The position numbers were made by a program, and so were the translations under genes. A model generated the notes under the pieces. It did not search any database, was not told where the DNA came from, and saw nothing but the letters and a program-made list of their open reading frames with translations. This document shows, piece by piece, positions 27,784-57,733 of a stretch of 64,000 bases of DNA. Origin of the DNA: a virus (taxonomy: Duplodnaviria; Caudoviricetes). The stretch is from the IMG/VR virus record IMGVR_UViG_3300029288_000111, positions 37,093 through 101,092 of that record, one strand, 5' to 3'. Each line of letters starts with the position of its first letter. Position 1 is the stretch's first letter.

Positions 27784-27789
27784 CGGAAT

Positions 27790-39130: not shown

Positions 39131-39964
39131 TCACTCCTGGAGACAGTTCTCCAGCACCATCTCCGGCGTCATCTCGGAGTCGGCGGGATGATCCACCGCC
39201 CAGCACGCATCGTCGAAGGCGGCCCCGTCGATCTTGCCGTCGAGGTATGCCTTCTGGAGGCGATCCAGCACCACGCCCTTCGTCAGTCTCCGAAGCGCCG
39301 GCGACTCCGCCTTGCGCAGCAGCCTCCGGGGGTGCGGGCTGGAGGGGCGGCCGGCCGCGGTCTCCGACATCTCCTCCAACTGGCCGACGAGCACGTCCAT
39401 CTTGTCGGCCAGCCCCTTCATCACCCGGCGCGCCGCCGCGTCTTCCGGGCTATCAGCGGCCGGCTCGGCCGCTGCCGGACGCGCCGCTACCGCCTTCTGC
39501 AGCTTCGCCACGTCCCTGCGCAGCGTGCCCAGGCCCTTCGTCAGCCCCTCCAGGTGATCGGCCACCGCCTTCAGGTAGGGCACGGCATCGAAAATCAACT
39601 CGTTACCCCCGGCCGCCTTCAGGAGGGTCTCGTGGAGGTCGTCGGCATCCACATCCGGCGTCGAGACGCTCTTGCGCACCTTGCGCGGGGGCGCCTCCTC
39701 CTCCTCCTCCTCCGACTCGTCCTCTTCCTCCGGCTCCGGCTCTGGCTCCGGCTCCTCCTCCTCCTCCGACTCCTCTTCCTCGTCGTCGGGAGCAGGGGCG
39801 GCCGCCGGCTTCCGCTTGCGCTCCTTGCGGATCTCCTCGGCCAGCGCGGCCGGGTTCTCCTCCAGCGCCTTCACCAGCGGCAGCGCCTGGTCCAACTCAT
39901 CCTCAGTGGCGGTGCCCGCTCGCAGGCGCCCCACGAACTGCTTCATCTCAGTCAGTAGAGACAT
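39131..39964 (-). CDS. capsid scaffolding protein
   Basis: Acidic low-complexity tract, coiled coil, many hydrophobic-x-K[AGS] sites. Confidence 0.75.
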   Translation of the reverse strand: MSLLTEMKQFVGRLRAGTATEDELDQALPLVKALEENPAALAEEIRKERKRKPAAAPAPDDEEEESEEEEEPEPEPEPEEEDESEEEEEEAPPRKVRKSVSTPDVDADDLHETLLKAAGGNELIFDAVPYLKAVADHLEGLTKGLGTLRRDVAKLQKAVAARPAAAEPAADSPEDAAARRVMKGLADKMDVLVGQLEEMSETAAGRPSSPHPRRLLRKAESPALRRLTKGVVLDRLQKAYLDGKIDGAAFDDACWAVDHPADSEMTPEMVLENCLQE

Positions 39965-39983: not shown

Positions 39984-40784
39984 TCAAGCAGCGCGTTCCG
40001 CCGCCTCGATCAGCGCGTCAATACGGTCGGCCCACAGCGCCCCCAGCGCCTTCTGGACCGGCGTCGGCTTGCGGCGCTTCTTCTTCGCCGCCTGGCCTTC
40101 CTCACAGTGACCCTCGATCTGCTCCACCCCGAGCGCGCTGACCGTTGGCCCCACGTGCGGCAGCGCCGCGCTGGCGGTGATCGCCTTGATACAGGGCAGC
40201 TCGCTCACGAGCTCGGGGATGATCGGAAACTGAATCTCCTCGAATGGCAGGTCCGACCGGAGTGCCTTCGCGAAGGCGATGGTGCCCACGTTCCGGCTCT
40301 GGATCGGCCGGGCGGTGATTCCCACCGTCGAAATGAACGGAACTACCTTCGACCCCAGCCGCTTCTTCACGCACCCGGCCACCGAGTAGCCGTACTTCCG
40401 GCCGTGCGCCAGGCCGTCCACCATCTGATCGGCCCATTTGGTGCCCTTGAGGAGATTGGTCCGCAGCCACGGCACATCCACCCCACTCTGGGGATGGGGC
40501 GCCCGGTAACGCTCGATGCCGTACCCCATGATGTAGTTGTCATCGAGGGTGCGCTCGTAGAGGTGCTCGTGATCGACGATCTGACCCAGGCGGTCGAACC
40601 CCTCCTCCAGGCCCTTCTCGAACTCCTGCGAACAGTCCATCTCGTCGCCTTCAAGATCGGCCGTCGGCTCCGTCAGCGGCCCCTCCACGATCCAGGTCTT
40701 GCCGTCCGCCGACGCCGCCGCTTTCTCAATCGGCACGTAGAACGAGAACGGCTTGACCAGTTCCTCTGCTACCACGGCGCTCAC
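39984..40784 (-). CDS. prohead maturation protease
   Basis: IEKA..VEG..DLEGD, DHEH..IMG, GYSVAG, IT.RP motifs. Confidence 0.8.
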   Translation of the reverse strand: MSAVVAEELVKPFSFYVPIEKAAASADGKTWIVEGPLTEPTADLEGDEMDCSQEFEKGLEEGFDRLGQIVDHEHLYERTLDDNYIMGYGIERYRAPHPQSGVDVPWLRTNLLKGTKWADQMVDGLAHGRKYGYSVAGCVKKRLGSKVVPFISTVGITARPIQSRNVGTIAFAKALRSDLPFEEIQFPIIPELVSELPCIKAITASAALPHVGPTVSALGVEQIEGHCEEGQAAKKKRRKPTPVQKALGALWADRIDALIEAAERAA

Positions 40785-41844: not shown

Positions 41845-43035
41845 TCAGAGAAACGTTGGGTCTATCTCGTGCAGGAACGCAAACCGATCCGGTGCTGCCG
41901 CGAACCTGTGTCCGATAACACCAGCACCGCCCGGGAGGATGACATTGTTCCGGCTCCAGTCATCCCCATCGGCGCCATTGTTCACTAGCAACCAGATGTG
42001 CTCTCGGTCGCCTTCGACCAAGAACTCTTCTCCGGTTCCGTAGATAGTGAATCCGCCGTGGTACTTCACTCGTCGACCATCCGGCAGCGGAACGTTCAAT
42101 GGGTGTTCCGCATCTCCTGGGTTGAAGAGAGACGCCTTGCGCTGGGCGAGCATCTTGTCTGCCGAGTTCCTCTGCTCGACCTCACGCCGAGCCTTCTCAG
42201 CGCGCTCCGTGCAGGCTTTCGTATCGCGGCAGAATACGTGCCACCCAGGTCGAGCACCGAACCCGAGGTGATCGTCCACGTCATCCTCGTCATAGTGAAC
42301 GAGGCTTCCTTCACCCGCTGGCACCATTCTGCCGCATGTAGAACAGTGCTGGGCGCGACGGTTCGTGCGCTTGGGCGCCGCACTTGCCTTCGGTGTTGCT
42401 GCGCGTTGGGGCGTCCTCTGCATCGCCAGCGAGCAATGCCTTCGGACACTCTCCTCAGCCTCAGCGGGGAAGACCCACATTTCGTTCACCGGACTCCACT
42501 GACCACCCAGCGCCCGAGCGCCCGACTCGAACGCAGGGTCCCTCAGTATCCACTTTGCCCCAAGCAACCTCGCTGACACAAGTAGCTTCTTGGACCCACG
42601 ACTGGGGAAACGCCCGAGTTCGAACTCGAACATTTCCTCGGGGTTGTACTGCTTCTTTTCCATCGTCGTTTCCCCTTTCCCTGGAGATAACGACGATTTC
42701 GACGCCGCGTTCCCGGAATCTTCCCTCCCAGCGAAGAGATCCGGCCCCGCTTCCTTGACCTTCTCCCGCTTGGTCATGTCCGGCCGCTTCCCCTTCGCCT
42801 TCTCGGGCTTCTTGTCCTCCACCCAGTAGGTCTGGGTGAAGTGCTCGGTCTTCCCGCCCCGCTTGCGGGTGACGCTCTTGCGCTCCTCGTGCAGCCCCTG
42901 GCGGGGCGCGCTGTGGGGCGTGTCACTCTCGCCGAAGCACAGCCACCGCTGCCCGCCCCGCTCCCGCCGGCCGTACTTCGAGAGCGCCTTCTCCAGCAGG
43001 AGTTTCAACGCGATGCACTTCGCCAGCTTACTCAT
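41845..43035 (-). CDS. leader-module fusion protein A; internal restart at ATG 42663
   Basis: MSKLAKCIALKLLLEKA leader, duplicated module, lower-GC cargo with CSTC; GGAGG RBS. Confidence 0.75.
   Translation of the reverse strand: MSKLAKCIALKLLLEKALSKYGRRERGGQRWLCFGESDTPHSAPRQGLHEERKSVTRKRGGKTEHFTQTYWVEDKKPEKAKGKRPDMTKREKVKEAGPDLFAGREDSGNAASKSSLSPGKGETTMEKKQYNPEEMFEFELGRFPSRGSKKLLVSARLLGAKWILRDPAFESGARALGGQWSPVNEMWVFPAEAEESVRRHCSLAMQRTPQRAATPKASAAPKRTNRRAQHCSTCGRMVPAGEGSLVHYDEDDVDDHLGFGARPGWHVFCRDTKACTERAEKARREVEQRNSADKMLAQRKASLFNPGDAEHPLNVPLPDGRRVKYHGGFTIYGTGEEFLVEGDREHIWLLVNNGADGDDWSRNNVILPGGAGVIGHRFAAAPDRFAFLHEIDPTFL
42688..42713 (-). promoter_or_regulatory. intragenic ECF-type promoter
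   Basis: GGAAC gcggcgtcgaaatcgt CGTTATC, then AAAGGGG RBS and in-frame ATG. Confidence 0.8.
42709..42991 (-). repeat. 283-bp direct repeat, copy A
   Basis: Gapless, high-identity alignment to 48389-48671 (offset 5680). Confidence 0.9.
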
Positions 43036-43088
43036 CTGAACCTCCGCAGGAAAGACATCAGTGGACACGAAATAGAGTCAAGATTCCG

Positions 43089-43114
43089 GGAACGCTCGCG
43101 CGCGGCCGTCGTTA
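43089..43114 (+). promoter_or_regulatory. ECF-type promoter
   Basis: GGAAC gctcgcgcgcggccgt CGTTATC. Confidence 0.82.
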
Positions 43115-43140
43115 TCTACCGTGGAGAGAGGAACAAGACG

Positions 43141-43551
43141 ATGAACATCAAGACGCTGGAGACGCTGGAATGGAAGTCCGGGCCGGAGTATCTCAGTGAC
43201 GAAGCGAAAGTCGATCATGGCGTCTACTCGATTGACAGCCCCGAGGGTTGCGGCCATAGCAATGTCTGGTACACTCCTCGCGGCGGCACGAAGATCCACC
43301 TCGCTACGGTGAGTGACACGGATTCGGACAGCCGGGCGCACATCCTCGTGGAGTTTGCCGAGGAGACGGTGGCCACCATCCGCGACTGCGACATCAGTGA
43401 ACCCATCTGCGACACCCTCGCAGATCACGACTTTGAAGAGGCGGTGCGGCGATCTTGGGATTATGACGACAACAGCAGGCGCGCCGTCTTCGCCGACTTC
43501 CAAGCATTCCGCACGTTGGTGGTGCGCCTGCTCCACCTCATCACCGCCTAA
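43141..43551 (+). CDS. hypothetical acidic protein
   Basis: ATG 43141 after promoter and GAGAGG RBS. Confidence 0.75.
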   Translation: MNIKTLETLEWKSGPEYLSDEAKVDHGVYSIDSPEGCGHSNVWYTPRGGTKIHLATVSDTDSDSRAHILVEFAEETVATIRDCDISEPICDTLADHDFEEAVRRSWDYDDNSRRAVFADFQAFRTLVVRLLHLITA

Positions 43552-43624
43552 CCCGCCATTGGGAGGAGTCCTGCTCCCCACGCCCCGCCCGCCGGGCCAA
43601 GGCGGGCAGAAGGAGACGGATAAG

Positions 43625-43822
43625 ATGATAGTCGGTTACATCGGACGAAACACACCCAGCAAGCCTGACAGAACTTCGGTCTTGATGGCGCTGGGAGGAC
43701 AGGTGTCACCCGGCGGTGACTTCATCTACTTGCCCGGTGATCAGTTGCCGGCCATGCTCGCGCACCTCGCACACGAGTGGAATCCCGTCACGCGCGAGCC
43801 CGAGTGGTTCATAGCACGATGA
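43625..43822 (+). CDS. small hypothetical protein
   Basis: AAGGAG RBS. Confidence 0.55.
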   Translation: MIVGYIGRNTPSKPDRTSVLMALGGQVSPGGDFIYLPGDQLPAMLAHLAHEWNPVTREPEWFIAR

Positions 43823-43853
43823 CACCCCCGGGGGCGCCCCGCACGCCCCCGTT

Positions 43854-44138
43854 CTACCCCTCCCGCCCGATCTGCTCGTGCGCCATCGCTTCCACCTGCC
43901 GCGCCCGCGCCAGCGTCTGCACCGCCCGCAGGTAAGCGATGCGCGCTTCCCGGCGCTTCACCGGGTCCGGGTCATCCACCAGTGGCGCGAACCGCTCCTG
44001 CGCCGCCAGCGCCTTCTTGATCAGCGCCTCGGCCGCTATCTGGCACTCCCGCGCCCGCAACCGTACCGCGTGGGCACTCTTCTCCGCCCGCGCCAGCGCC
44101 CGCCGCGCCCGCTCCTGGCTCTTGGGGAGGGTTGGCAT
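43854..44138 (-). CDS. hypothetical helical protein
   Basis: Coupled to upstream gene (TGATG). Confidence 0.65.
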   Translation of the reverse strand: MPTLPKSQERARRALARAEKSAHAVRLRARECQIAAEALIKKALAAQERFAPLVDDPDPVKRREARIAYLRAVQTLARARQVEAMAHEQIGREG

Positions 44139-44524
44139 CAGTCCTCGTCATCCCACTCCATCTTGCCGGACAGGGTTGCCCGATGGTGAACCGTAGCAAC
44201 CCGTATGGCACTCTCATGGGATGGCAGAACTGCAATACGCTTCTCCACCCCTCCCGCCTTCTGGTGGTAAGTGAGCCAGTGCCGGCCGTTAGGCGCGCCC
44301 TCAATATAGTAAACACCATGCCCGGCGTCCGCACGATGCACGGGGGCCCCCTTCGCTTCCCTGCTCCCCTGCGAGAAGTGGAGTTGCGGTTTGGCGTCCG
44401 TAGCATCAAAGTCCATGACCCCCTGCCCGGCCTTCTCCGCCCGCTGCTTCCCCGCCGCCGTCAACCCTTTCAGGAGCCGCTCCACCACGATGTTGAGCGC
44501 GATGGACTTGCCCAGTCTACTCAT
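44138..44524 (-). CDS. leader-bearing hypothetical protein
   Basis: MSRLGKSIALNIVVERLLKG. Confidence 0.7.
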   Translation of the reverse strand: MSRLGKSIALNIVVERLLKGLTAAGKQRAEKAGQGVMDFDATDAKPQLHFSQGSREAKGAPVHRADAGHGVYYIEGAPNGRHWLTYHQKAGGVEKRIAVLPSHESAIRVATVHHRATLSGKMEWDDED

Positions 44525-45675
44525 CCCCGTCCCTCCAGCCGCTCCAGGAGCAACTTCAGCGCGATCGCCTTCGCCAGGCGTCCGCCGCGCGTCGCCCGGC
44601 CCCGGATCATCCGCAGGAAGGTGCTCTCGCTCACGCGCGTCGCCTCATGGTCGAACTTCCCCAGGTCCGGCACGTGCTTCCACTGCCCGCGCACCAACAT
44701 CTGCGGCCAGGAAGCGTGCGCCCGCCGGACCGCCGGCTGCCCATCCCACGAGTAGTATCCCGCGGAGAGCGCCGGTCGCCCCCGCCGCGCCACGTCCGGG
44801 TGGTGGAAGTGTGACCGCCGCTTCCCCTGCCCCTTCATCAGCCCGCCCTTCTTCCCCAGCACCGGCGTTCGCCCCTCCATATTCCGCACCGCCTGCCCGT
44901 AGAGGCGGTTGGAGCGCGCGTTCAGGTCCTGATACCGTACCTTCCCCTCCGGCGTCTCCAGGTCCGCCGGCTTCATCGAGCGCATCCCCTCGTAGAGCTT
45001 GTGCCCCGCCGCTTCCCCGCCCAGACCGTGCTGCTTGGCCTGCAGCATGTCGATCGGCATGATCTGCAGTTCTCCAACGTGCCCGGTCTGGGGGTGCTGT
45101 GGGCGCACGGTGATGTCCTGGTAGCCGGCGTCCGTCTTCTTGTAATCCGGGGCGCCCGCCAGCGGCATCCCCGCCTGCCGCAGGTGGTGCGTCACGTGCG
45201 CGATGTCGTCGGGGTGGCTCACGGCGATGGTCGCCCGGCTCACGTCCTTGAGCTGTCGGTAATCGCCTCCCTTTCCCTCGATCTTCTCCTTCGCCCGCTT
45301 CTCGCCCTTGAGCGGCGCCAGGATCACCATCCCGCCCTTGCGGTGCCCCGCCGCATAGTCCTCCGGCGTCGGAGAGTGCCCCTCGACGACGTGCAACCCC
45401 AGTTTCGACGAGAGCCCCTTCTCCCGGTCAATCACGTTGTCCAGCCACTCCTTGTGCGCCGCGGCGTGCTGGTAGAGCGTCGGCAGGTGGCCGCTCTTCT
45501 GGCGCACCTCGTGTTCCGGGGTGGCCGTCATCTCCTCGTGGGTGAAGTGCTCCGTGGCCTCCGGCCCGGTCCGCCGGTGCGCCGATTCCGGGTCGAAGTG
45601 CGGGGCGCCTATCGGCGGGGCCGCCGGGCGCGTGGCAGGAGTCGAGACTCCGGGGCGGGGTTGTGGGTAGATCAT
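44521..45675 (-). CDS. RelA/SpoT-like nucleotidyltransferase domain protein
   Basis: LK..RA.EK, LKDVSRATI, GYQD, ELQI, GHKLYE motifs; leader-like sequence at C-terminus. Confidence 0.75.
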   Translation of the reverse strand: MIYPQPRPGVSTPATRPAAPPIGAPHFDPESAHRRTGPEATEHFTHEEMTATPEHEVRQKSGHLPTLYQHAAAHKEWLDNVIDREKGLSSKLGLHVVEGHSPTPEDYAAGHRKGGMVILAPLKGEKRAKEKIEGKGGDYRQLKDVSRATIAVSHPDDIAHVTHHLRQAGMPLAGAPDYKKTDAGYQDITVRPQHPQTGHVGELQIMPIDMLQAKQHGLGGEAAGHKLYEGMRSMKPADLETPEGKVRYQDLNARSNRLYGQAVRNMEGRTPVLGKKGGLMKGQGKRRSHFHHPDVARRGRPALSAGYYSWDGQPAVRRAHASWPQMLVRGQWKHVPDLGKFDHEATRVSESTFLRMIRGRATRGGRLAKAIALKLLLERLEGRG

Positions 45676-46481
45676 GACCTCTCCGATCCTCTCAGTACCT
45701 TCTGCCGTTCTCCATACTCGGGGTAATCGGCCAGCACTTCCGGCGGCACCGGCTTCCCGTCGTACCGCACCGCATCGCTCACACTCGTCCGGTGCATAGC
45801 CTCAAGATCGTGTTGCACCATCTGCATGTTGAAGCGATGCCCGGGAGCGAGTCCCTTTTCCTCCTGCCGCGTCTGCTCCAGGCCCGCTGTCACGAACTCC
45901 TCCCGCGTCATCTGCCAAGGCTCTCTCTTGGCAGGCTTCTCGCGCTTCGCTCCTGTGCTGCTGCTCCTCCCACCGTCAGGCGCTGCACCCACGCGGGCTT
46001 CCTGCGCCCCCCCAGTCACCGCGGAGAATCTCGGCGTTGGCACGGTCGTAGGTGTGCTGGGTGTCTCCGCCACCCGGGAACCCCATGCGCGCGCCACATC
46101 GCCCGCGAAGTCATCATGACTTTGCCACAGTTTGCTCTGCTCCAGTGGTAGGTTGAAGAATTCGTTGGCAGCAACGTTCCGCACTTGAGTGGCACTGCCC
46201 GAACCATGCAACTGCGTCCGTATGCGCCTAAGCACCACTTCAACCACCTTGGGTTTGCTGTCCGCACCCTCGGCGGCGGCCGCAGGCGTGCTAGGTGCCC
46301 CTCTCCCCTTCGGCACGAACTCCCCGCCCCGGTACTGCCCGGTGGCTCCCTGCTGCGCCCGAGGGTGCTGCTGCTCGAAGTCGAACCCCATCTGCCCGGC
46401 CGCCGCCGCCGCCCGGAAGGCCCGCTTCGAGGCCGCCTTCACCAGGATGTCGAGCGCGATCGCTTTGCCGAGAAGACTCAT
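45672..46481 (-). CDS. leader-bearing protein with polyvalent-protein motifs
   Basis: MSLLGKAIALDILVKA; HPR..GGEF; PWQMTREEF; KPVPPEVLADYP. Confidence 0.7.
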   Translation of the reverse strand: MSLLGKAIALDILVKAASKRAFRAAAAAGQMGFDFEQQHPRAQQGATGQYRGGEFVPKGRGAPSTPAAAAEGADSKPKVVEVVLRRIRTQLHGSGSATQVRNVAANEFFNLPLEQSKLWQSHDDFAGDVARAWGSRVAETPSTPTTVPTPRFSAVTGGAQEARVGAAPDGGRSSSTGAKREKPAKREPWQMTREEFVTAGLEQTRQEEKGLAPGHRFNMQMVQHDLEAMHRTSVSDAVRYDGKPVPPEVLADYPEYGERQKVLRGSERS

Positions 46482-46536
46482 GGCAGGACCCTCTCTCTCT
46501 CAGGGCGAACTCGGAATCTTGACTCTGGAGAACACC

Positions 46537-47076
46537 ATGCACCAGTACGAAGTCGGCAAGCCCTACCACCCGAACCGCCGCTCCTGGCCCGAGCGCGGCG
46601 TCTACGAGTACCGCGGCGGCCAGCACGAGCTGCTCCTCTTCTGGAGCCAACCCACCACGAAAGAGGTCGAGGACGTGAAGCGCGGCCCCGCCGAGTTCGC
46701 CCTCTACACCGAAGGGCCGCTGATCGTCTTCCTCTTCCGCTTCGGCCGAAACACCCCCTGGAGCGATTCCCCCTACACCATCCACCTGACGCTGCCCGAC
46801 GAGCGCACCCTGCCGCCGCCCGTCGCCTCCACCGAGACGCGCATCCTGCTCCACGTGGTGCTCGTGGACGCCGCCACCGGCATCATCCGCGCCCTGCGCG
46901 CCGTCACTCTCTCGCCCGAGTTCACCGCCGCCCTCCAGGACGCCATCCGCGCCCAGAGCGAACAGCCGTTCCACCCCGCTGCCTATGACGCCGCCATCGC
47001 AGGCATCTACCGCCGCTTCCCCCACAGCGACCGCCTGGCCGCCGCCGCGTCGGTGAAGTGCATCGGCGGGGAGTGA
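46537..47076 (+). CDS. conserved hypothetical protein
   Basis: GGAG RBS; W.DSPY..H, LVDA.TGII.ALR motif. Confidence 0.75.
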   Translation: MHQYEVGKPYHPNRRSWPERGVYEYRGGQHELLLFWSQPTTKEVEDVKRGPAEFALYTEGPLIVFLFRFGRNTPWSDSPYTIHLTLPDERTLPPPVASTETRILLHVVLVDAATGIIRALRAVTLSPEFTAALQDAIRAQSEQPFHPAAYDAAIAGIYRRFPHSDRLAAAASVKCIGGE

Positions 47077-47084
47077 AGATTCCG

Positions 47085-47110
47085 GGAACGCTCGCGCGCG
47101 GCCGTCGTTA
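47085..47110 (+). promoter_or_regulatory. ECF-type promoter
   Basis: Identical to the 43089 copy across the promoter and into the leader. Confidence 0.82.
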
Positions 47111-47136
47111 TCTACCGTGGAGAAAGGAGAACGACG

Positions 47137-47475
47137 ATGCCGAGCACGATCGATCTGAAGGACCGGCTGGACACGATGCTCACCGGCGAGCCGAATCCGA
47201 AAGACACCCTCGCCTTGATCAGGGAGATGCTCCCCAACATTGCTTCCAGGATTCCAGCGATGCTGGAGCACGAGGGTGGATCCAACACGGTCTCCGCGCT
47301 CTTGGCGAAGACCCTGGCGAAGACCCCGATGGCGCCCGATGTGCCCGAGGCCGAGAAGGTCGGTTGCACCAACCCGAGCGCGGTGGCCGACTACCTGATC
47401 GTCGCCGCAAGCGACGTGTTCGGCCCGCACATGCGCGCCGTGGCGCTGGCTACCGCCCGGGCCTTCCTCGTCTGA
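47137..47475 (+). CDS. hypothetical protein
   Basis: AAAGGAG RBS after promoter. Confidence 0.75.
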   Translation: MPSTIDLKDRLDTMLTGEPNPKDTLALIREMLPNIASRIPAMLEHEGGSNTVSALLAKTLAKTPMAPDVPEAEKVGCTNPSAVADYLIVAASDVFGPHMRAVALATARAFLV

Positions 47476-47531
47476 TCATCACTTCCGGGGGCGCCCCGCA
47501 CACCCCCGGCGCGTTACCTTCCCACCCATAA

Positions 47532-47565
47532 CAAAGGCCCGGTCGCTCATCCGACCGGGCCTTTG
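47532..47565. terminator. inverted repeat between convergent genes
   Basis: CAAAGGCCCGGTCG-N6-CGACCGGGCCTTTG. Confidence 0.7.
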
Positions 47566-47578
47566 GCGATCCTATGGG

Positions 47579-48724
47579 TCAATCCCACTGATGCCGATTC
47601 GCCTTCTCCTCGCGCTCCTTCTTGATCGCAGCAAGAATCTCGGGGTGCTCCGCGTCGAACTGTGCCAGTCGCTCCCTGGCTTCCTCAGCAGCCTCCACAT
47701 GCTTCGCCCGTTCGTGGTATCCCACATCCACGATGCCGCGATCGTGCGCGCGGTTCACGGCATCATCGGCATCATCCATGTGGCCTGACACCTCGGCCGC
47801 CAGCCGCTGCCGCTCCGCGCGAAGCGTATCCAACTTGCCCGATGGAGTCTGCCGCTCCGCCTCGTCGGCTACCCGGATCGCCTCGATGATCGCCTTGGCC
47901 TCTTCGCTCGTCAAACCGATGGCGGGCTTCGTGTGGCTCAGGTAGTGGGTCGTATCCCCAACCCGCTTGTTGAGTTTGGTAGGATCTCCGGTACCAACGT
48001 ACTTGCCGTCCAGATACGCTTGGGCGACGTGCTGACCCGCGTACCGGTGCAGCTTGATCTCGACGGTTCTCCCGTCCTTTCCTGTCTTCTTGATGACCGC
48101 ATTCATCGTCGTTTCCCCTTTCACTGGAGATAACGACGGGGAGGCGCCAGCGTTCCCGGAATACTTCTCTTCGGAAGAAGCCATCCCCGCTGCCTCTCGA
48201 AAGACCTTGAGGAGTTCTTGCGCCAACTCTAAACTCATGCCGTGTCCTGGATACTCCCCTGTGTCAATCCCGAGTTTGACAGTATAGGCATTATCCACGT
48301 TCCAGGCGACGCTATGACCTGCTGCGGCCGTCTTCATTTGCTCCAACAGCCTTGTTTCTTCCTGGTTCAGGCTTCTCTTCTCCCCAGCGTTCCCGGAATC
48401 TTTTCTCTCGCTGAAGAGGTCCGGTCCCTCATCCTTCGCCTTCTCCCGCTTGCCGAAGTCCGGCCGCTTCCCCTTCGCCTTCTCGGGCTTCTTGTCCTCC
48501 ACCCAATACGTCTGGGTGAAGTGCTCGGTCTTGCCGCCCCGCTTGCGGGTGACGCTCTTGCGCTCCTCGTGCAACCCCTGGCGGGGCGCGCCGTGGGGCG
48601 TGTCACTCTCGCCGAAGCGCAGCCACCGCTGCCCGCCCCGCTCCCGCCGACTGTACTTCGAGAGCGCCTTCAGCACTCGCTCGGTGAGGATGTCAAGCGC
48701 AATCGCTTTCGCCAACCTGCTCAT
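47579..48724 (-). CDS. leader-module fusion protein B; internal restart at ATG 48106
   Basis: MSRLAKAIALDILTERVLKA leader, duplicated module, different cargo; GGAGGT RBS. Confidence 0.75.
   Translation of the reverse strand: MSRLAKAIALDILTERVLKALSKYSRRERGGQRWLRFGESDTPHGAPRQGLHEERKSVTRKRGGKTEHFTQTYWVEDKKPEKAKGKRPDFGKREKAKDEGPDLFSERKDSGNAGEKRSLNQEETRLLEQMKTAAAGHSVAWNVDNAYTVKLGIDTGEYPGHGMSLELAQELLKVFREAAGMASSEEKYSGNAGASPSLSPVKGETTMNAVIKKTGKDGRTVEIKLHRYAGQHVAQAYLDGKYVGTGDPTKLNKRVGDTTHYLSHTKPAIGLTSEEAKAIIEAIRVADEAERQTPSGKLDTLRAERQRLAAEVSGHMDDADDAVNRAHDRGIVDVGYHERAKHVEAAEEARERLAQFDAEHPEILAAIKKEREEKANRHQWD
48131..48156 (-). promoter_or_regulatory. intragenic ECF-type promoter
   Basis: GGAAC gctggcgcctccccgt CGTTATC, RBS, in-frame ATG. 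Confidence 0.8.
48389..48671 (-). repeat. 283-bp direct repeat, copy B
   Basis: Aligns to 42709-42991. Confidence 0.9.
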
Positions 48725-49999: not shown

Positions 50000-52900
50000 C
50001 TATGCCGCCCGCCGCATGTGCTGCTGCAGGAGCGCCTCTTCATCCCGCGCGATCCGGTCCGCCAGCCCCGTGTCGTCGAGCAACTCGCTCGCGCGTGTCA
50101 ACATCTCCCGCAACTCCTGCTTCCCCGCCAGGATCTCTCGCCGCCGGTGCTCGTAGGGGGTGTCCGTGGCGAGCGTGTGAACCTCCACATCGTGCTTCTG
50201 CCCCATTCGCAGCACCCGCCCGGTGCGCTGCTTCTGAGTCAGCGCCGTGTAGGGCGTGTCGTACTGGATCACCCGGCTCCCCCGCTGCAGGTTGAGACCC
50301 ACCGCGCCGGCATCCGAGGATACCAGTACGTCATACTCCGCCTCCCCGACGCCCCCGGTCGGCGCGAATCTCTCTTTCGTCTGGTTCCGCTTCCTCGCCC
50401 CGTCCGGGCCTTTGTAGGTCGCAACCCGGTGCCCCGCCGCCTTCAGCGCCCCGGCAATCGCGTCCACCGCTTCCAGTCGGTGCGCGAACACCACCAGCGG
50501 CCGCGCCCGGCTCTCCTCGGGGCTGCCGGCAAGTTCCACCACCTTCTTCAGCTTCGCCGCCTCGGGATGGGTGTTCACCACCCGGTCCAGCGCCGCTTGC
50601 GTCGTCATCCCCAGAGACATCTGCACCCGACGCGCGATCTCCTCGTGCGCCTCTTCCGGCCGCCCCCGGAAGGAGCTGGGCGAGAGCGCCCGGATCGCCT
50701 CGACATCCACCCGCCCCTGCTGCCGCGCCGCCCGTGCCCGCCGGTAGAGCTGCTCCACCCGCGCGTATGCCTCTCGCTCGGCAGGTGACGGCTCCAGCCG
50801 GTGATCCCGCTCCTCGCTCTTCACCCCCGGATCGATGCTCTCGGCGTAGTGGTACGGCGCCATCTCCAGCGCCAGCGCCCGATACGCCGCGTCCGTGCCC
50901 GTCGCATACCGCCGCAGAAACTCCTCGCGGTTCGAGTCGTTGTAGCGGTCCGGGCGGATCTTGGAGAGGAAGTCGAACGCCTCACTGTTGTGATGCCAGA
51001 TGCCCTGCGCCAGATAGTTGTGGTAGACAGGGACCGTCAGATCGTAGACCTCAGCTTCGCCGACCTTGTCAATAATATTGACTTTGTGGTATACTAAGGC
51101 AGCGCTCTCCGAAAGGTGCTCCCATGCGACATAGGATGCGTGACTACGATGCCGAGATACGGCGGATGGCAGCCGAAGGGAAACAGGTCTCCCAGATCGC
51201 CCGCGCGTTGAATATCCCAGCACGCAGCGTCCACGGCTATTGCGAACAGCAGCAGATTGAACACATACGCCAGCGCGGATGCCCCGGGAGCGTCCTTGAT
51301 CCGCATGATTCCCAGATTCGAGCAATGGCTGCCGCAGGTCTGACCCTACGCGAGATGGGAGAAGCCTTCGGAGTGACGGACGGAGCAGTGCGACGATTCT
51401 GCGTGCAACATGGCATCGAGCACTGCCACAAGCGAGGCTGGAGGCCCGGCACACATACCGGACTTGACCATCACTCATGGAAGGGCGGTCGCTATGTATC
51501 TGGTGGCTATGTCTACGTCCTCCGCCCGGAGCACCCAGAATCCGACAGCGATGGTTATGTTCGAGAACACCGGCTCGTCGCTGAGGGGATGTTAGGCCGC
51601 CCCCTTCTCCCATCGGAAGTGGTCCATCACAAGGATGGGAACAAGTCCAACAATGCGCCCGGGAACCTGAGGGTCTATCCATCGAACCGCGAGCACTTCC
51701 TTGATGCACACCCTGGCGAGCCGTGGTCTGAGGAGATTCGCGCCAAGATGATGACCGGCCAGAAACGTGGTCACAAGAAAGGTGTGCCCCACTCAGAAGA
51801 GACGCGCGCGAAGATGAGCGCCGCGAAGAAGGGCAGACCAATGTCTCCTGAAACGAAGGCGAAACTCTCTGCCGCGAAGAAGGGCACGCACCTCTCTCCA
51901 GAAGCGCGGGTTCGCGTTGCAGAAGCTGCTCGGAATCGCGTTGTCTCGGAAGAGACGCGCCAGAAGCGTGCTGCGACGTGGGCGCGCAAGCGAGCAGAGC
52001 GCCTGGGGCAATCTCCCGTAGGTGGCGCCAACCCTCCGGCGTCAGGAACCGATGATTCCCGGCAACCGTGATCTCCGCGCCATTGTCCAGAACGACCCGG
52101 TACATCGGCGCGATACATTTCACGAAGGGTACCGACGCCTGCATCAGCCGCCGCACCCCGGCTGGATCCAGCGTCCATACCCACGGCGCCATGCCCCGCG
52201 CCGTCCACTCTCTCACCGGCATAGCAATCCGGCGCACCGGATCCTCTATGATCGTGTCCGGATGGATGCACCCGTCGTTTCTGATCGGATCGGCGCTCAT
52301 CGAGATATGGTGACTCGTGCCGTCCGTCAGCGCGTCAATGGCGTTCGCCATCTGCGAGCCTTCGGCGCTCCCCCGCCGCAGCAGGTTGTGGCCTTCGTCT
52401 ACCACCGACATCCCGAAATCCCACCCCTTCGCCGCCAACGCCTCCTTCATCGCCCGCTGCCGCTGCCGCCGCGGCGCCGTCTCCAGGTAGCCAATCGCCT
52501 TCTGCCGGTTCCCCCCGAAGCGGTGCTCCGCCAGCGCGTCGATCAGGTCATCCCGGAGCGCCTGGTGCGTCACCACCACCATCCCCAGGTCGGGGTTCGC
52601 GTAGGCCGCCTGCCGCTCCTCGCGCGATGCCCCTGGCTTCGAGTGCCAGGTGATCCCCGCTTCCGGGTCCACAAATCTAATCGCCTCCCCCGAGAACTGG
52701 CCGACCACCCCGCTCGGCACGGCGTAGATCGCCCGCTTCACCTTCCCCTTGGCCCGCTGATCGGTGTAGGCCGCGATGCTCGCCAGCGTCTTGCCGGTTC
52801 CCACGGCCATGCTGTTGCCGATCCGGTGCGCCGCGTCGAACTGACGCAGAAACCGCTGCCGCTTCACCGCATCCCCGGTGGTGAAGTCGGCGTCCGCCGC

Positions 52901-55900
52901 CGGTGCCGGCCGCTCGATGTCGAGGCGGGGCATCATCCCGGCGAGTTCCGCTTCCGCCGCATCCCCGAGGGTCGTCCGGACCATCTCCTGCTGCAGCTCC
53001 TGGCTGCGCCCCTCTTCGCCCCCGAGTTTGAGCTGCTTGCTCTCCTGCGCCGCGGCGATCTCCGCCACCCCGGCCCCGAGGCTCCCTTCGGCGTAGCGCC
53101 CCTGCTTCCGCTCGCGCGCCGGGTCGGCCAGGCTCTGCTGCCTGGCCCGTTCCTTCGCCCGCTGCTCCGCGCTCTGGACGCGCTGCGCGTGCTCCTCGGC
53201 GTAGGTGAGCCGCTTCACCCCCCGCCGCAGCCGCGTGCCGGTCGCCCGCTCCAGGGCCGCCGCGAACTTCCCCGACACCTCCCCGCGCATCTTCTCCAGG
53301 ATGCTCTGGTAGGCCCGGCGCTCTCCTTCCGGCCCCATCGTGAACCCCGAGAGGTAATCCGTCCAGGTCAGGCCGGTCGCTCGCTCCGAGTCGGCGGTGA
53401 CCACCTTGCCCGGGTCGAACTCCCCCGAGACATCCCCGTGCTTCGCCAGCACATCGCCGAAGAGGTTCTGATAGGCCCAGCCCCGCAGCCGCTCCTCGAT
53501 CCGCGCCCGTGCTTCCCGCGCCAGCGCGTCCACGCCCCGGGTTTCTGTCGGGTACAGTTCCGGCGTCAGGGTGCTTCCCGGTTCCCGCGCCATCTCTTCC
53601 AGGCGCGCCGCTTCGGCTCCCAGCCGCGCCGCTTCCTCTCCCTGCGCCCCGGCCGCCTGCCGCCGCAGCCGCGCCGCCTCGAAGGAGACCGCCTCCCGCG
53701 CCACCGGCTGGTATCCCAGTTCCCCGGCGTGCTCCCGCGCCGCCCGCAACACCGCCGCGTCGTCGCTCAGGTCCATCGTGGCGAAGGAGTGCCCCGCCGG
53801 CTTCTCCTCCCCCAGGTCCATCCCGAACATGCCGCCGGAATCGGCCGGCGTCGCCTTCTCGTCGCTCTCGCGCCACTGCTTCTGGATCGCCGCGTAGGCT
53901 TCCCGGCCTTTCCCGAGTCTGGACTCCCACTGCTCCCAAATCGCCCGTTTCGCCCCGGCGTTCTCCCCGGTGAGACCCAGCGGCTCCTGCCCCGCCTCTC
54001 CCACCCGGAAGACGTTCCGGCGTGCCCAGTCGCGCACCGCCTGCCGCCCCTCGCGCCCCAGGTCGCCCACGTCGCCGAAGGCATACTGGAGCGCTGGCTC
54101 GCGCGTCACGATCTGATACGCCAGGTCCCTCGCCTCCTGGCTCCGGGGGATGCTTTGCGCCCCCAGCGGCCCCCCGCCACTCTCCTTCAGCCAGTCGGCA
54201 TGGTAGCCCCGGAAGCGGCGTGCCGTCTCCCGCATGTACTCCTTGGCCGCCTTGCCCCCTTCGGTGCCCCTGGCGGAGTCGGTGTGCAGTGGTGCCACCT
54301 CGGAAAGCGCATCCTCGAACTCGGCGTTCTGGTGCGGCTGCACGCCCGCCTCTGCGCGCACTTGCGGGCTCCACAGCGCGCTCACGATCTGCTCAGGAGA
54401 GTAGCCCACCTCCAGGCGCCGCGCGACGTTCTCCTTCAGGCGCGCGGCCAATTCCTCCTTGCCGTCGAAGGCATCCACCGCCAGCCGGATCTCCTCGGGC
54501 TTCACCCGCTCCGGGTCATACTCGAACGACGGCGGTGCCGGCCGCCGACTGATCCCCTCGGGCAGCCACCCCGGCTCGTCCTGCGTGCCCCGCTGGATGT
54601 CGAGGACCTGCCGCCGCAGCGCCGCTTCCCGCGGGTCCACGTGCAGCCGCGCCGCCAGCTTGTCCATCCCCCTCGCGGTGATCTCCAGGAACTTGTTCGC
54701 CCCGTTGGTGTGGAGGACGTAATCCCCCTCCTGCGCTTCCCGGTAGCCGGTGGGCGAGAACGGGTCCGGCGCCATCACCGACGGCTCGTCGAGGCCCACG
54801 GCGCGCGCCTTCACGATCGCATCCTCGTAAGAGGTCGCCCCGAGGCTGATCTGCAGCCGGTCGCGCGGACTCCCCATCAGCGCCTCGTTCAGCGCCGCCG
54901 CCGCTTCCAGGCGCCCCAGCGCCGTCCCTGCCAGCCGCCGGGCGTCCCTGACCAGCTCCTCGCGCTCGCTGTTCTGGTGCAGCGCCGCGATCAGGCTGAT
55001 CTCGTCGCTCAGAGGGATCAGGTCCGTGTTCTCCGCCGCGTTCATCCGCTCGTGCGCGGCTTCCACGGCCTCCTCGGCCGCCTTCACCTGCCCGGCGATG
55101 TGCGTCTCCCGCAGCGCCCGCGTCGTCGCCTCCAGGCGCACCGGGTCGAGCTGCTGTGCCATCGCCCGCGCCATGACGTTCGCCGTCGCCCACTCGCCCA
55201 GGATGTCCGCGGTCAGCGGGTCCACCCCCGCCCCGCCGAGTGCCACCTGCGCCACCTCGCCGAAGAGGGCGTTGTGCCCGGCCAACCGGTGTTCGCGGAT
55301 CGGCGCCGTCGCCTCCAGGGAGTGAACCGTCTCTACGAGCCCCCGCATCGCCCGCTGCCGCCCCTCTTCGTGCAGGTCCTGCGCCACCTTCCGCAGCGCC
55401 TCCTCGTCGGTTAGGGGTGAGACGCGCAGCACCGCCACCGTCGGCAGCGACCCCACATCCTCGATGCTCTCCATCTCCTTTTCGAGGGTGCGGCTCTCCC
55501 GCTCCAGCGCTTCCAGCTTCTTCGCCGCCTGCGCCAGCGAGATCGCCTGCCCGATATCCATGTTCGCCGCGTCCGTGGGCAGGCCCTCCGCCTTCTCCCG
55601 GATGCCAGCGGCTTCCGCCAGCGCCTTCCGGTCCGCGCGCGATTGCGCCGCCGCCTCCCGCATCGCCGCCAGCGAGGCCAGCGCCGCTTCCGGCTCCTCG
55701 CCCTTCTCCGCCGCTCTCCGCCGCTGGATCTCTTCCTTCTCCCCGGCCAGCAGCTCGGGCGTCACCCCCCGCTCGCGCGCCTTCTCGTCGAGCGCCGCCA
55801 GGTAGCCCTTCCCGGTGTCTCCCATTGTGGAATGGACGAGATCCCCGAGGCCCACGTCCCCCAACTCCCGCCCGGCCAGCTCCTCGTGCGCGTTCAGGAT

Positions 55901-57733
55901 CCGCTCGCTCACCGAGCGCGCCATCTCCCGCACTCTCGAGAGGACGGCATCCTCATGCGCTTGCTCCGTCTGCGCCGCCCGCTTCTCCGAGCGCGCCTGC
56001 GCCCGCTTCTCCACCGTCGCGCGCTGCTTCGCCGTGAGCTGCGCGGCGTCATCGAGGTTCTCCCGCTTCAGCGCCCGCGCGGTCTCCGTCGCCCGCGCCT
56101 GCTCCAGCGCCTGGCTCTTGATCTTCGCCTTCTCGTCGTCGCTCAGGGAGAACTGCTCCGGCTTCCACCCCGCATCCCGCGCGAGCTGCTCCAGGACCTT
56201 CTGCTGCTGCTCCTTCTTCAGGCTCTGCACGTGCGCGATCCGCTCCTGCTTCGCCTGCTCTACCTGCCGGGCCTCGCCCGCCGCCCGCTTCGTCGCTTCG
56301 AGGGAGGCCTCCTCGCCCTTCAGCCCCTCCGTCTTCGCCGCTTCGAGGTGCCGCTCATACCGCTCCTGGTGCTCCTTGTCCTGCGCCTCCCGCCGCTGCT
56401 GGGCCTTCGCCTTCGCTCGCCGCTTCGCCTCCTCGCGGTGTTCCGCCATGGTCCGCACCCCGGTCAGCCGCAGGCCGTTCAGCGCCCCGCCGGCGCCCCC
56501 GATCACCGTGTGCGTGCCGTCGGGGTTTTCCTTGATCAGGACCGGATGCCCCTCCTCGTCATCCCCGTTCGGGTGCACCGTGATCCAGTGTTCCCCGGTG
56601 CCCAGCTTCGAGGGCGCCGCCTTCTTCTCCGGCTGCTGCTCGTCGGCGCCGACCGCCTTGCGGATGTCGGGGTCGCTCGGATCGAAGGTACCTCGGTTGC
56701 CGATGGCCGACTTGATCTGCTCGGGATAGAATACGGCGTAAGTAGTCGCTCCCTGCTCGCGCGCTTCAATGCCATCATACCCGAGTGACTTCAGTTCTAT
56801 AGCAACCCCCGGAAGCCGGAGAATCTCATAGATCGGCATCCTGGTGGATAACGTGTCACGAGCAACACCCACAAACGCAGAGCGACGAGATCGTGCACTT
56901 ACAGCGTACTCATGTGCTCGTATCGCGTCCACCTGCTCCTGCGTTGGAACATGCTCATCCTCTAGCCAACCCAGATTCCAGTCATAAGGACGCCCCTCCA
57001 AGTCCGTGTACCGCATACCGGTCGGAGCGTCTGGCACATATCGAACGCCAACAGCCAATAATGCCCCAACGAGGCGATCCAGTTCCGCTTTTGTGGGGAT
57101 GCGGATGTCACGGTCAAGGACGAAACCCCCCGCCACTGCATTGGCGAGACGCAGACGTGGCACGCTCGTCAGCTCGGCCACCTCTGCAACAGACGCCTCT
57201 TCTTCGATATTCCGCCCGATTCGCAGTGGGCGCTCCACTCGCAGATAGACAGGATACACTCCATGAGCACCACCCTCGCGCCCCACCGCTTCGGAGTATG
57301 TGTCCGCATATCTTGGCGCGTCGGTGAACCATGAGGGACCAAACTGTGTGCGGAACTGAGAGAAGCCAGATCCGGGAGTGCCGTGGTAGACCACCAGCGG
57401 CTTCCCATGCTCGTCCACCACCTTGCTGTCGCCGAACCACCGCTTGAACTCGGGCGTCTCCGTCTGCTCCGGCTTCCTCCCCTTGATCCGCACCCCGAAC
57501 GTCACTTTGCCGCTGGCATGATGGATCGGCACCTTCTCCCGGCGCTGATACGGCTGCTGCGCCTTCAGCAGCGGCTCCACGGGCTGCCCGTGATACCGGA
57601 TCGTATGGCAGAGCGGGCACCACGACGCGCTTCTCCCGCGCCGGCTCCGGTCCTCCCGCACCCACACCCGCAGGCTCGTCTCATCCGAGCACTCGCACTT
57701 CGGGCGCCTGCCTTTGAAGATCGCTCGCAGCAT
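50000..57733 (-). CDS. large polyvalent protein: ART-PolyVal-like domain, helical region, SF2/SNF2-like helicase, with intein
   Basis: FKRWFGDSKVVD..VVYHGT..GYDG..QIKSA.GN.GTF; helicase VGTGKT, DEGH, SADP, GLNLQ, QRTGRVLRMGQ. Confidence 0.88.
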   Translation of the reverse strand: MLRAIFKGRRPKCECSDETSLRVWVREDRSRRGRSASWCPLCHTIRYHGQPVEPLLKAQQPYQRREKVPIHHASGKVTFGVRIKGRKPEQTETPEFKRWFGDSKVVDEHGKPLVVYHGTPGSGFSQFRTQFGPSWFTDAPRYADTYSEAVGREGGAHGVYPVYLRVERPLRIGRNIEEEASVAEVAELTSVPRLRLANAVAGGFVLDRDIRIPTKAELDRLVGALLAVGVRYVPDAPTGMRYTDLEGRPYDWNLGWLEDEHVPTQEQVDAIRAHEYAVSARSRRSAFVGVARDTLSTRMPIYEILRLPGVAIELKSLGYDGIEAREQGATTYAVFYPEQIKSAIGNRGTFDPSDPDIRKAVGADEQQPEKKAAPSKLGTGEHWITVHPNGDDEEGHPVLIKENPDGTHTVIGGAGGALNGLRLTGVRTMAEHREEAKRRAKAKAQQRREAQDKEHQERYERHLEAAKTEGLKGEEASLEATKRAAGEARQVEQAKQERIAHVQSLKKEQQQKVLEQLARDAGWKPEQFSLSDDEKAKIKSQALEQARATETARALKRENLDDAAQLTAKQRATVEKRAQARSEKRAAQTEQAHEDAVLSRVREMARSVSERILNAHEELAGRELGDVGLGDLVHSTMGDTGKGYLAALDEKARERGVTPELLAGEKEEIQRRRAAEKGEEPEAALASLAAMREAAAQSRADRKALAEAAGIREKAEGLPTDAANMDIGQAISLAQAAKKLEALERESRTLEKEMESIEDVGSLPTVAVLRVSPLTDEEALRKVAQDLHEEGRQRAMRGLVETVHSLEATAPIREHRLAGHNALFGEVAQVALGGAGVDPLTADILGEWATANVMARAMAQQLDPVRLEATTRALRETHIAGQVKAAEEAVEAAHERMNAAENTDLIPLSDEISLIAALHQNSEREELVRDARRLAGTALGRLEAAAALNEALMGSPRDRLQISLGATSYEDAIVKARAVGLDEPSVMAPDPFSPTGYREAQEGDYVLHTNGANKFLEITARGMDKLAARLHVDPREAALRRQVLDIQRGTQDEPGWLPEGISRRPAPPSFEYDPERVKPEEIRLAVDAFDGKEELAARLKENVARRLEVGYSPEQIVSALWSPQVRAEAGVQPHQNAEFEDALSEVAPLHTDSARGTEGGKAAKEYMRETARRFRGYHADWLKESGGGPLGAQSIPRSQEARDLAYQIVTREPALQYAFGDVGDLGREGRQAVRDWARRNVFRVGEAGQEPLGLTGENAGAKRAIWEQWESRLGKGREAYAAIQKQWRESDEKATPADSGGMFGMDLGEEKPAGHSFATMDLSDDAAVLRAAREHAGELGYQPVAREAVSFEAARLRRQAAGAQGEEAARLGAEAARLEEMAREPGSTLTPELYPTETRGVDALAREARARIEERLRGWAYQNLFGDVLAKHGDVSGEFDPGKVVTADSERATGLTWTDYLSGFTMGPEGERRAYQSILEKMRGEVSGKFAAALERATGTRLRRGVKRLTYAEEHAQRVQSAEQRAKERARQQSLADPARERKQGRYAEGSLGAGVAEIAAAQESKQLKLGGEEGRSQELQQEMVRTTLGDAAEAELAGMMPRLDIERPAPAADADFTTGDAVKRQRFLRQFDAAHRIGNSMAVGTGKTLASIAAYTDQRAKGKVKRAIYAVPSGVVGQFSGEAIRFVDPEAGITWHSKPGASREERQAAYANPDLGMVVVTHQALRDDLIDALAEHRFGGNRQKAIGYLETAPRRQRQRAMKEALAAKGWDFGMSVVDEGHNLLRRGSAEGSQMANAIDALTDGTSHHISMSADPIRNDGCIHPDTIIEDPVRRIAMPVREWTARGMAPWVWTLDPAGVRRLMQASVPFVKCIAPMYRVVLDNGAEITVAGNHRFLTPEGWRHLREIAPGALLACAPTSQHASGASLPRQRDSEQLLQREPALLERGACPSSRQRVSPSFQETLVCPSSRRSSSRASLLSGAHLSCDHVSGRSSSWRESPQTTARQGVHQGSARGSMDRPSGSRAHCWTCSHPCDGPLPMGEGGGLTSPQRRAGVLEHNHRCRILGAPGGGRRHSHQIHSDRPSMSDGQVRYVCRASSLACGSARCHVARRIVALLRPSLRRLLPSRVGSDLRQPLLESGNHADQGRSRGIRAGVCVQSAAVRNSRGRCVLGYSTRGRSGRPVSLRLPSAVSRHRSHASYVAWEHLSESAALVYHKVNIIDKVGEAEVYDLTVPVYHNYLAQGIWHHNSEAFDFLSKIRPDRYNDSNREEFLRRYATGTDAAYRALALEMAPYHYAESIDPGVKSEERDHRLEPSPAEREAYARVEQLYRRARAARQQGRVDVEAIRALSPSSFRGRPEEAHEEIARRVQMSLGMTTQAALDRVVNTHPEAAKLKKVVELAGSPEESRARPLVVFAHRLEAVDAIAGALKAAGHRVATYKGPDGARKRNQTKERFAPTGGVGEAEYDVLVSSDAGAVGLNLQRGSRVIQYDTPYTALTQKQRTGRVLRMGQKHDVEVHTLATDTPYEHRRREILAGKQELREMLTRASELLDDTGLADRIARDEEALLQQHMRRAA
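51066..51095 (+). promoter_or_regulatory. sigma70-type promoter for the antisense HNH gene
   Basis: TTGTCA-N18-TATACT with extended -10 TG; RBS AAAGGT; ATG 51124. Confidence 0.7.
51124..52071 (+). CDS. HNH homing endonuclease (2x HTH, HNH, NUMOD3-like repeats), antisense inside the intein
   Basis: WKGGR..GY, EHRLVAE..LGR.L..EVVHHKDGNKSNN..NL; HSEETRAKMS/PETKAKLS repeats. Confidence 0.92.
   Translation: MRHRMRDYDAEIRRMAAEGKQVSQIARALNIPARSVHGYCEQQQIEHIRQRGCPGSVLDPHDSQIRAMAAAGLTLREMGEAFGVTDGAVRRFCVQHGIEHCHKRGWRPGTHTGLDHHSWKGGRYVSGGYVYVLRPEHPESDSDGYVREHRLVAEGMLGRPLLPSEVVHHKDGNKSNNAPGNLRVYPSNREHFLDAHPGEPWSEEIRAKMMTGQKRGHKKGVPHSEETRAKMSAAKKGRPMSPETKAKLSAAKKGTHLSPEARVRVAEAARNRVVSEETRQKRAATWARKRAERLGQSPVGGANPPASGTDDSRQP

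Follow-up and report, generated by a model that had tools for sequence, protein, structure and literature searches.

Eight otherwise different proteins encoded by a single uncultured phage carry the same helical peptide of about 20 residues, called the tag in the following, at one of their ends. The window analysed here comprises the last 64 kb of a 101,092-bp virus record of IMG/VR (IMGVR_UViG_3300029288_000111); coordinates with the prefix L006 or L007 refer to parts of the record outside the window. The tag stands at the N-terminus of seven carriers and at the C-terminus of one, and, with the exception of a sigma factor gene, all tagged genes lie in the interval from the probable portal gene to the capsid gene. 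We give an even chance to the view that the tag docks its carriers inside the prohead, where they would be packaged and later ejected with the DNA. The carriers and their tags are listed below; GC3 denotes the G+C content at third codon positions and ECF stands for extracytoplasmic function.

41845..43035, minus strand: protein A, 396 aa; tag, N-terminal module of the type found in E, in-frame promoter and 272-aa cargo
44138..44524, minus strand: protein B, 128 aa; N-terminal tag (open reading frame and tag pattern)
44521..45675, minus strand: protein C, 384 aa; probable RelA/SpoT-type nucleotide pyrophosphokinase domain (Tas1 match, homologue families)
44524..44586, minus strand: C-terminal tag of C, GGRLAKAIALKLLLERLEGRG followed by the stop codon (pattern, profile)
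45672..46481, minus strand: protein D, 269 aa; cargo without assigned family, leader GC3 0.90 versus 0.72 in the remainder
46422..46481, minus strand: tag helix of D (pattern, profile, leave-one-out)
47579..48724, minus strand: protein E, 381 aa; tag, N-terminal module, in-frame promoters and 175-aa cargo
48665..48724, minus strand: tag helix of E, MSRLAKAIALDILTERVLKA (pattern, profile, leave-one-out; helix predicted by AlphaFold2)
26815..27741, minus strand: protein F, ECF-type sigma factor, 308 aa, tagged (Pfam Sigma70_r2 and r4_2; phrog_1740)
L006:15126-15605, minus strand: tagged 160-aa protein; GTG start directly after the stop of the DUF3307 gene (profile match)
L006:849-8240, minus strand: tagged DarB-like giant protein, 2,464 aa; Eco57I-like methylase, ResIII, Helicase_C and intein

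Six of the eight peptides had been reported in a preliminary description of this DNA, and a pattern search relocated all of them at the positions given there, all on the minus strand. The N-terminal copies of the window start at 48724, 46481, 44524, 43035 and 27741, each with an ATG 6-12 nt downstream of a GGAG-type ribosome-binding site. A hidden Markov model search had been suggested as a check. The profile built from the six window copies recovered these at E-values of 5e-8 to 2e-11 in the six-frame translation of the whole 101-kb record and added two N-terminal copies outside the window, i.e. those of the 160-aa protein and the 2,464-aa DarB-like protein; the leader profile retrieved no carrier from the protein databases beyond those of the phage itself, and the C-terminus of P0010, a homologue of C, is the one other copy (see below). 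In leave-one-out assays all copies ranked above all non-member open reading frames, for which the best E-value was about 8-11. The E-values of the copies were 6e-10 to 3e-4 with the exception of the giant protein at 0.39. All eight copies are located at protein termini; the profile scan of the record found none internally and none in another frame. After removal of the leaders the only similarity among the cargo pairs was that between A and E. Thus the carriers are unrelated, as had been proposed, for the other cargo pairs, whereas A and E share an N-terminal module of about 100 aa with 82% identity in protein and 90% identity across 294 nt of DNA.

The helix core common to the copies is x-L-[AG]-K-x-I-A-L-x-[IL]-[LV]-x-E-R-[LV]-L-K-[GA]. 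AlphaFold2 predicted from a seven-sequence alignment a single helix of residues 3-30, with a predicted local distance difference test (pLDDT) score of 86-89 for the first 20 residues and of 50-59 for the remainder. The model thus has a confidently predicted helix, which is followed by an apparently flexible stretch. The leader length of about 20 aa in the preliminary description holds for the helix, whereas six carriers have a longer leader consisting of the helix and a second motif: all seven N-terminal copies show [AG]GQ 8-12 residues after the helix (alignments A2 and A4), and in six of them [LMF]x?F[DE] follows, 30-40 residues into the protein. In sigma factor F, where the leader covers residues 1 to about 40, and in protein C the helix is present and the [LMF]x?F part is absent. 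The leaders are basic with a net charge of +3 to +12 across the first 100 aa. The hydrophobic moment of the tag helix is 0.06-0.24, i.e. the helix is not amphipathic and has hydrophobic residues on all sides. This suggests that it is enclosed by a partner rather than lying on a surface. A membrane-anchoring amphipathic helix or a secretion signal was considered and rejected because the hydrophobic moment is low and charged residues are distributed throughout.

At identical tag residues 48% of the codon pairs use different codons. Over the 17 core codons the pairwise identity was 43-75% in DNA and 35-76% in protein, compared to a mean of 31% and a maximum of 57% in random in-frame 51-mers. Different codons for the same residues rule out recent copying or a purely nucleic-acid function, the A/E pair excepted. 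Judged from these codon patterns, the tag is under selection at the protein level.

In several respects the tag is an addition to its carriers. The phage has another ECF sigma factor (genome 31844-32554, minus strand), which is 39% identical to F and has no tag; the homology begins at residue 42 of F and the N-terminus of the paralogue is unrelated. The giant protein is a DarB homologue, with residues 280-2330 about 37% identical to 'DarB-like antirestriction' proteins of many phages. This homology begins only at about residue 280, after the tag, and the first 280 residues have no match, other DarB-like proteins included. In A, B, D, E and the 160-aa gene the GC3 of the first 40 codons is 0.85-0.93, compared to 0.66-0.75 in the remainder. 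The structural genes of the phage have a GC3 of 0.86-0.91, which matches that of the leaders. Thus native leaders precede compositionally foreign cargo in these five genes. The same shift is seen in detail in A, with a GC3 of 0.93-1.0 in the N-terminal module and of 0.68 in the 272-aa cargo, which has a zinc-ribbon-like CxxC...C motif. In E, the tag and the basic N-terminal module (residues 1-100, GC3 0.91) are followed by a decayed promoter, a 55-aa segment (GC3 0.56), an intact promoter with ribosome-binding site and the cargo. The cargos of A, B, D, E and the 160-aa protein had no matches in Pfam, NCBIfam or PDB, and the 175-aa cargo of E none to any family; the lone PHROG match among them was a borderline one of B to phrog_2923 (E 0.0098). 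Taken together, the idea of a portable tag is well supported by the untagged sigma paralogue, the offset from the DarB homology, the native codons and the use of both termini, including that in P0010.

The C-terminal copy is found on protein C, which had been labelled RelA-like. The label is supported by the nearest solved structure, the (p)ppApp-synthetase toxin Tas1 (PDB 6ox6, E 4e-5), and by homologues at 32-44% identity, P0017 and P0018 among them, which carry Pfam RelA_SpoT (PF04607). The match of C itself to Pfam RelA_SpoT had an E-value of 0.016 and 15.9 bits, below the cut-off of 27. Its tag forms the extreme C-terminus, immediately before the overlapping start of B. A search of 5.8 billion proteins identified P0010, encoded on a 4-kb assembly of a public sequencing run, as the closest homologue of C with 64% identity. 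Both proteins align collinearly to the end and P0010 ends in ...GKLGKALAMMLLLKGMGL, which makes it the only carrier found outside this genome. Because P0010 keeps the C-terminal copy, this placement is maintained and not accidental. By the alignments, then, the tag is used at either protein terminus. More distant homologues of C (54-55% identity and below) do not have the helix, and some have other N-terminal extensions. A recent tandem duplication as the source of the C-terminal tag was rejected, as its DNA is 65% identical to the adjacent tag of B and it is kept in P0010. Another homologue of C, P0012, sits on a 110-kb contig.

The stop codon of D overlaps the start of C by 4 nt, and the start of B overlaps the stop of C (ATGA). 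With a 94-aa helical open reading frame the row D, C, B (43854-46481, minus strand) has stop/start overlaps of 4, 4 and 1 nt and thus forms one translationally coupled unit. B is placed after the Tas1-like C as an immunity or antitoxin gene would be, and might encode a partner of C or a protein conferring immunity to it.

In searches for the tag elsewhere the 130-residue N-terminal module of E, compared with 5.8 billion proteins, matched only the two proteins of the phage itself. The leader profile A4 retrieved six own proteins and nothing else from 1.84 billion representative proteins, and had no match in PDB. A tblastn search of 50,697 records of isolate phages with one of the leaders was negative. 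Three degenerate DNA patterns, two of them run against IMG/VR and one against GTDB with one genome per species, returned chance single copies in unrelated low-GC contigs. A search of IMG/VR and JGI with the capsid alignment yielded one unrelated contig of 28% GC without tags.

The genomic setting ties the tag to the head module. Along the minus strand a candidate small terminase gene is followed by TerL (phrog_2, 2e-30), the probable portal (640 aa, two weak PHROG portal matches), DUF3307, the tagged 160-aa gene, a DUF3008-InPase-2H polyvalent protein, a MazG-like gene, the tagged DarB-like giant and a repeat-rich gene at the contig start. Across the contig ends, which probably meet in this gene, the order continues with an ART-helicase polyvalent protein, a 417-aa protein, E, D, C, B and A, and then with a 281-aa protein, a protease candidate, an acidic scaffold candidate and the capsid protein. 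The clustering of all carriers but the sigma factor by the head genes, as first described, is confirmed by this order, with two extra tagged genes after the portal. These neighbouring genes and the sliding clamp gene of the phage are:

37534..39027, minus strand: major capsid protein (phrog_752, E 5e-38)
39131..39964, minus strand: candidate scaffolding protein, 277 aa; isoelectric point 4.6, net charge -29, poly-Glu tract, located between the protease candidate and the capsid gene
39984..40784, minus strand: candidate prohead protease, 266 aa; ESM Atlas neighbours are Peptidase_S78 and HK97-type proteases at a template modelling (TM) score of about 0.5
50000..57733, minus strand: untagged polyvalent protein (ART-PolyVal, SNF2-type helicase, intein), upstream of the tag cluster
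62400-64000 of the window and L006:1-795, minus strand: repeat-rich gene; 118-aa units with the motif VTAAGMGxxPK
L006:8311-8976, minus strand: MazG-like pyrophosphohydrolase
L006:9392-11332, minus strand: second polyvalent protein, DUF3008-InPase-2H phosphoesterase
L007:8109-9254, minus strand: complete DnaN-type sliding clamp with all three Pfam domains

The scaffold candidate had no family matches and was assigned by position and composition. The protease candidate had no matches in Pfam, PHROG or NCBIfam. A T4-like head module with an S77 protease, a gp22 core and a gp23-like capsid protein was not found, and the protease candidate mostly resembles Peptidase_S78. The idea that the protease candidate has a tag-like C-terminal tail was rejected, as the tag profile gives no match there. 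The capsid protein is at most 26% identical to that of any isolate phage, and those isolates are not T4-like; the only homologues found were P0003 (53% identity, on a 5.9-kb contig) and P0004 (28%). The lineage is almost unsampled as judged by these matches.

We favor the view that the tag directs its carriers to the head because of its terminal position, the basic linker facing an acidic scaffold candidate, the location in the head module and the classes of cargo. The leader would serve as a portable docking peptide, which tethers chosen phage proteins to an internal component of the prohead such as the scaffold, the inner face of the capsid or the portal. The docked proteins would be enclosed during assembly and later ejected with the DNA. 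The working part would be the helix of about 20 residues at a free protein end, with a flexible, basic linker connecting it to the cargo. GQxx[LMF]x?F[DE], present in six carriers, could provide a second contact or a processing site, although the assignment of [LMF]x?F[DE] to processing is a guess. There are precedents for both kinds of cargo: DarB of phage P1 is packaged in the virion via its N-terminal 30 residues (PMC9024508), and in other phages RelA/SpoT domains are fused to the head protein MuF and predicted to be injected (PMC5512222). The partner of the tag as well as the packaging, possible cleavage and ejection of its carriers are inferred. The capsid targeting put forward in the preliminary description is consistent with gene position and cargo classes, and the evidence for the destination is circumstantial.

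A number of points weigh against loading into the head. The two untagged polyvalent proteins, which are a priori the best candidates for packaging, do not have the helix, and the tagged sigma gene lies outside the head module. With its low hydrophobic moment the tag helix is unlike many helices that dock on surfaces. No T4-type L/I-x-E site is present at the end of the helix and the protease is a weak structural lead, so the removal of the tag by the prohead protease, which had also been proposed, is not sustained. The second motif fits the consensus of bacterial clamp-binding peptides, and the phage has a clamp of its own. Apart from the C-terminus of P0010 no carrier was seen elsewhere in the representative proteins, IMG/VR, GTDB and PDB.

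Of the alternatives, we consider it unlikely that the helix is a self-associating or partner-binding module that joins the tagged proteins in one complex, or a toxin with its neutraliser, and has no role in packaging. Hydrophobic residues all round are expected of a helix buried in a bundle, and the tags at the end of C and at the start of B lie back to back in a translationally coupled pair. Yet such a module does not account for a complex of a sigma factor, a methylase-helicase of 270 kDa and small unrelated proteins, nor for the location of their genes in the head module; in addition, the hydrophobic spacing, as we read the sequence, does not fit a heptad coiled coil. Likewise unlikely, in our estimate, is docking to a hub other than the capsid, specifically the sliding clamp of the phage or the host. 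In this case GQxx[LMF]x?F would be the clamp-binding motif and the helix an auxiliary contact, and the DarB-like methylase-helicase and the small effectors would be recruited to replicating DNA; if true, the phage would bring a whole effector set to the replication fork. The motif matches the bacterial clamp-binding consensus QL[SD]LF or QxxLxF (Dalrymple-type motif), and six of the eight carriers have Q-x-x-[LM]-(x)-F in a flexible region near a terminus. GQxx[LMFIV]x?F occurs 11 times in the six-frame open reading frames of at least 60 aa of the record. Eight of these occurrences are in the N-terminal regions of tagged proteins, and the giant and the 160-aa protein carry it twice each. The complete DnaN-type clamp encoded by the phage also speaks for this possibility. 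On the other hand, F and the RelA-like C, which next to the DarB homologue are the most clearly identified carriers, make the helix, and not the [LMF]x?F part, the universal element, the clustering between the portal and capsid genes is not accounted for, and none of the replication proteins of the phage has the same motif at a terminus.

Very unlikely is an origin of the shared 5' sequence as a by-product of cassette shuffling, i.e. as a homology arm for recombination or a copied initiation region, without any function of the peptide. A stretch of 294 nt is 90% identical between the genes of A and E, repeated promoter copies connect it to the cargos, and leader and cargo differ in composition; the shared DNA, the promoter junctions and the shifts in composition do indicate that recombination built these genes. 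However, except in the A/E pair the DNA identity between tags is only 43-75% and many of the differences are synonymous, whereas the pattern of residues is preserved. Furthermore, a C-terminal copy cannot serve initiation and yet is kept in a homologue of 64% identity. The divergence at synonymous sites thus largely refutes shuffling as the sole explanation.

Loading into the head by a tag would follow a known principle. The capsid-targeting sequence (CTS) of the T4 internal proteins IPI-III and Alt comprises about 10-19 aa, with the gp21 cleavage site L/I-x-E at its end (Mullaney and Black; summarised in PMC9024508). Like the tag, it is a short terminal peptide on several unrelated proteins encoded near head genes, and in both cases the carriers include host-modifying and anti-restriction functions. 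In contrast to the T4 CTS, the tag is a helix of about 20 aa without L/I-x-E at its end, has a second motif 10-12 residues further on and one C-terminal copy, shows no sequence similarity, and belongs to a phage with a capsid protein of phrog_752, which is not T4-like. The resemblance to P1 DarB (Gonzales et al. 2022, PMC9024508) lies in the fact that one carrier is a DarB homologue with the candidate signal at its extreme N-terminus. Yet the N-termini of the P1 Dar proteins yielded no consensus (PMC9024508), whereas a single one is found on eight proteins here, and the N-terminal 280 residues of the giant are without equivalent in DarB-like proteins. Polyvalent and MuF-fused effectors (Iyer et al. 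2017, PMC5512222) share with the present phage the same repertoire in the same region from portal to capsid, i.e. a methylase-helicase dyad, RelA/SpoT, ART, InPase and 2H domains, which were assigned to early effectors that are injected (PMC5512222). They differ in that their domains are covalently fused into a giant protein or MuF, while several separate genes with small tags are used here. Short transplantable tags that dock cargo inside an HK97-fold shell are also the C-terminal cargo-loading peptides of encapsulins and the C-terminal tail of the HK97 maturation protease. The C-terminal copy on C is placed in the same way; those tags, however, have no sequence similarity to ours and are extended or short and not helices of 20 residues. 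Thus the general principle is already known from the T4 CTS and the P1 DarB signal, and this case differs in five ways: a long, helical, bipartite tag; its use at either terminus; a head that is not T4-like; cargo of recognisable function including a sigma factor; and fusion of cargo through in-frame promoters.

An ECF-type promoter, TCCGGGAAC-N16-CGTTA, occurs about 17 times in the genome; the copies are distributed over both strands and each precedes a ribosome-binding site and a start codon. Five of them lie in the first 37 kb of the record, and those of the window are at 3046(-), 3075(+), 19453(+), 26845(-), 27787(-), 31923(+), 35637(-), 42717(-), 43085(+), 47081(+), 48160(-) and 57743(+). 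Two subclasses, ...CGCGTTAGCAG and ...CGTCGTTATCT, can be distinguished. Promoters of the CGTCGTTATCT subclass precede the gene of the tagged sigma factor, the cargo portions of A and E and small genes on the plus strand. As the phage has two sigma factors and two promoter subclasses, each factor may serve one subclass. The promoters associated with tagged genes are:

27750..27791, minus strand: ECF-type promoter GGAAC-N16-CGTTA, subclass CGTCGTTATCT, directly upstream of the tagged sigma gene
42661-42721, minus strand: promoter and ribosome-binding site read in frame inside A (also given as 42680-42721), peptide DSGNAASKSSLSPGKGETTM
48104-48164, minus strand: promoter and ribosome-binding site read in frame inside E, peptide YSGNAGASPSLSPVKGETTM
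48387-48400, minus strand: decayed promoter copy in E

The leader modules of A and E run in frame through the promoter and ribosome-binding site into the cargo's own start codon. Therefore the full-length fusion must arise whenever the upstream start is used, and the internal promoters could give rise to extra, untagged cargo. An extension of head loading, which we regard as doubtful, is that the phage loads the ECF sigma factor together with the DarB-like enzyme and the Tas1-like synthetase. Upon DNA entry this sigma factor would redirect host RNA polymerase to the GGAAC-N16-CGTCGTTATCT promoters, and the cargo of A and E would exist in a tagged, packaged form from upstream transcripts and in a free, cytoplasmic form from the internal promoter. 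We know of no phage with a sigma factor as packaged or injected cargo.

If loading into the head is correct, the set of proteins packaged and injected by an uncultured phage would be readable from its genome. The tag would constitute a third delivery route for early effectors beside polyvalent and MuF fusion, all in one genome. Furthermore, a helix of 20 residues, which is found on proteins of 128-2,464 residues and at either end, would provide a handle for loading HK97-fold shells.

A possible third element, short and basic, has the form [KR]-V-P-[IV]-H...G..[YF].[YV][RW].K+P; the giant, A, E and the untagged ART polyvalent protein carry it close to their N-termini, and P0010 has it as well; the search pattern was derived from these very sequences. 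Its locations are:

42830-42880 and 48510-48560: A/E module
57460-57540: ART-helicase protein
L006, about 7990-8050: giant protein

The capsid protein has ...VLGPDAFFPNG at its N-terminus (38950-39027), which reads VIGADAYFPGG in the homologue of 53% identity. This start resembles the GPDLF[AS] that closes the leader module of A and E (42735-42750 and 48415-48430). The likeness may be due to chance or to a motif for processing or binding that these proteins have in common.

Genome positions 100845-100970, which lie within 354-nt tandem repeats, recur without a mismatch as the first 126 nt of the contig. Both ends of the contig thus fall into a single repeat-rich gene, where the assembly probably broke and the record probably closes. 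The 101-kb record may therefore comprise almost the entire genome in spite of a CheckV estimate of 72%. Three genes without assigned function are embedded on the opposite strand among the tagged genes (43141-43551, 46534-47076 and 47137-47475, plus strand), two of them behind ...CGTCGTTATCT promoters. Finally, positions 25448-25823 of the window hold six 40-nt repeats with a spacing of 70-71 nt, which resemble a CRISPR array.

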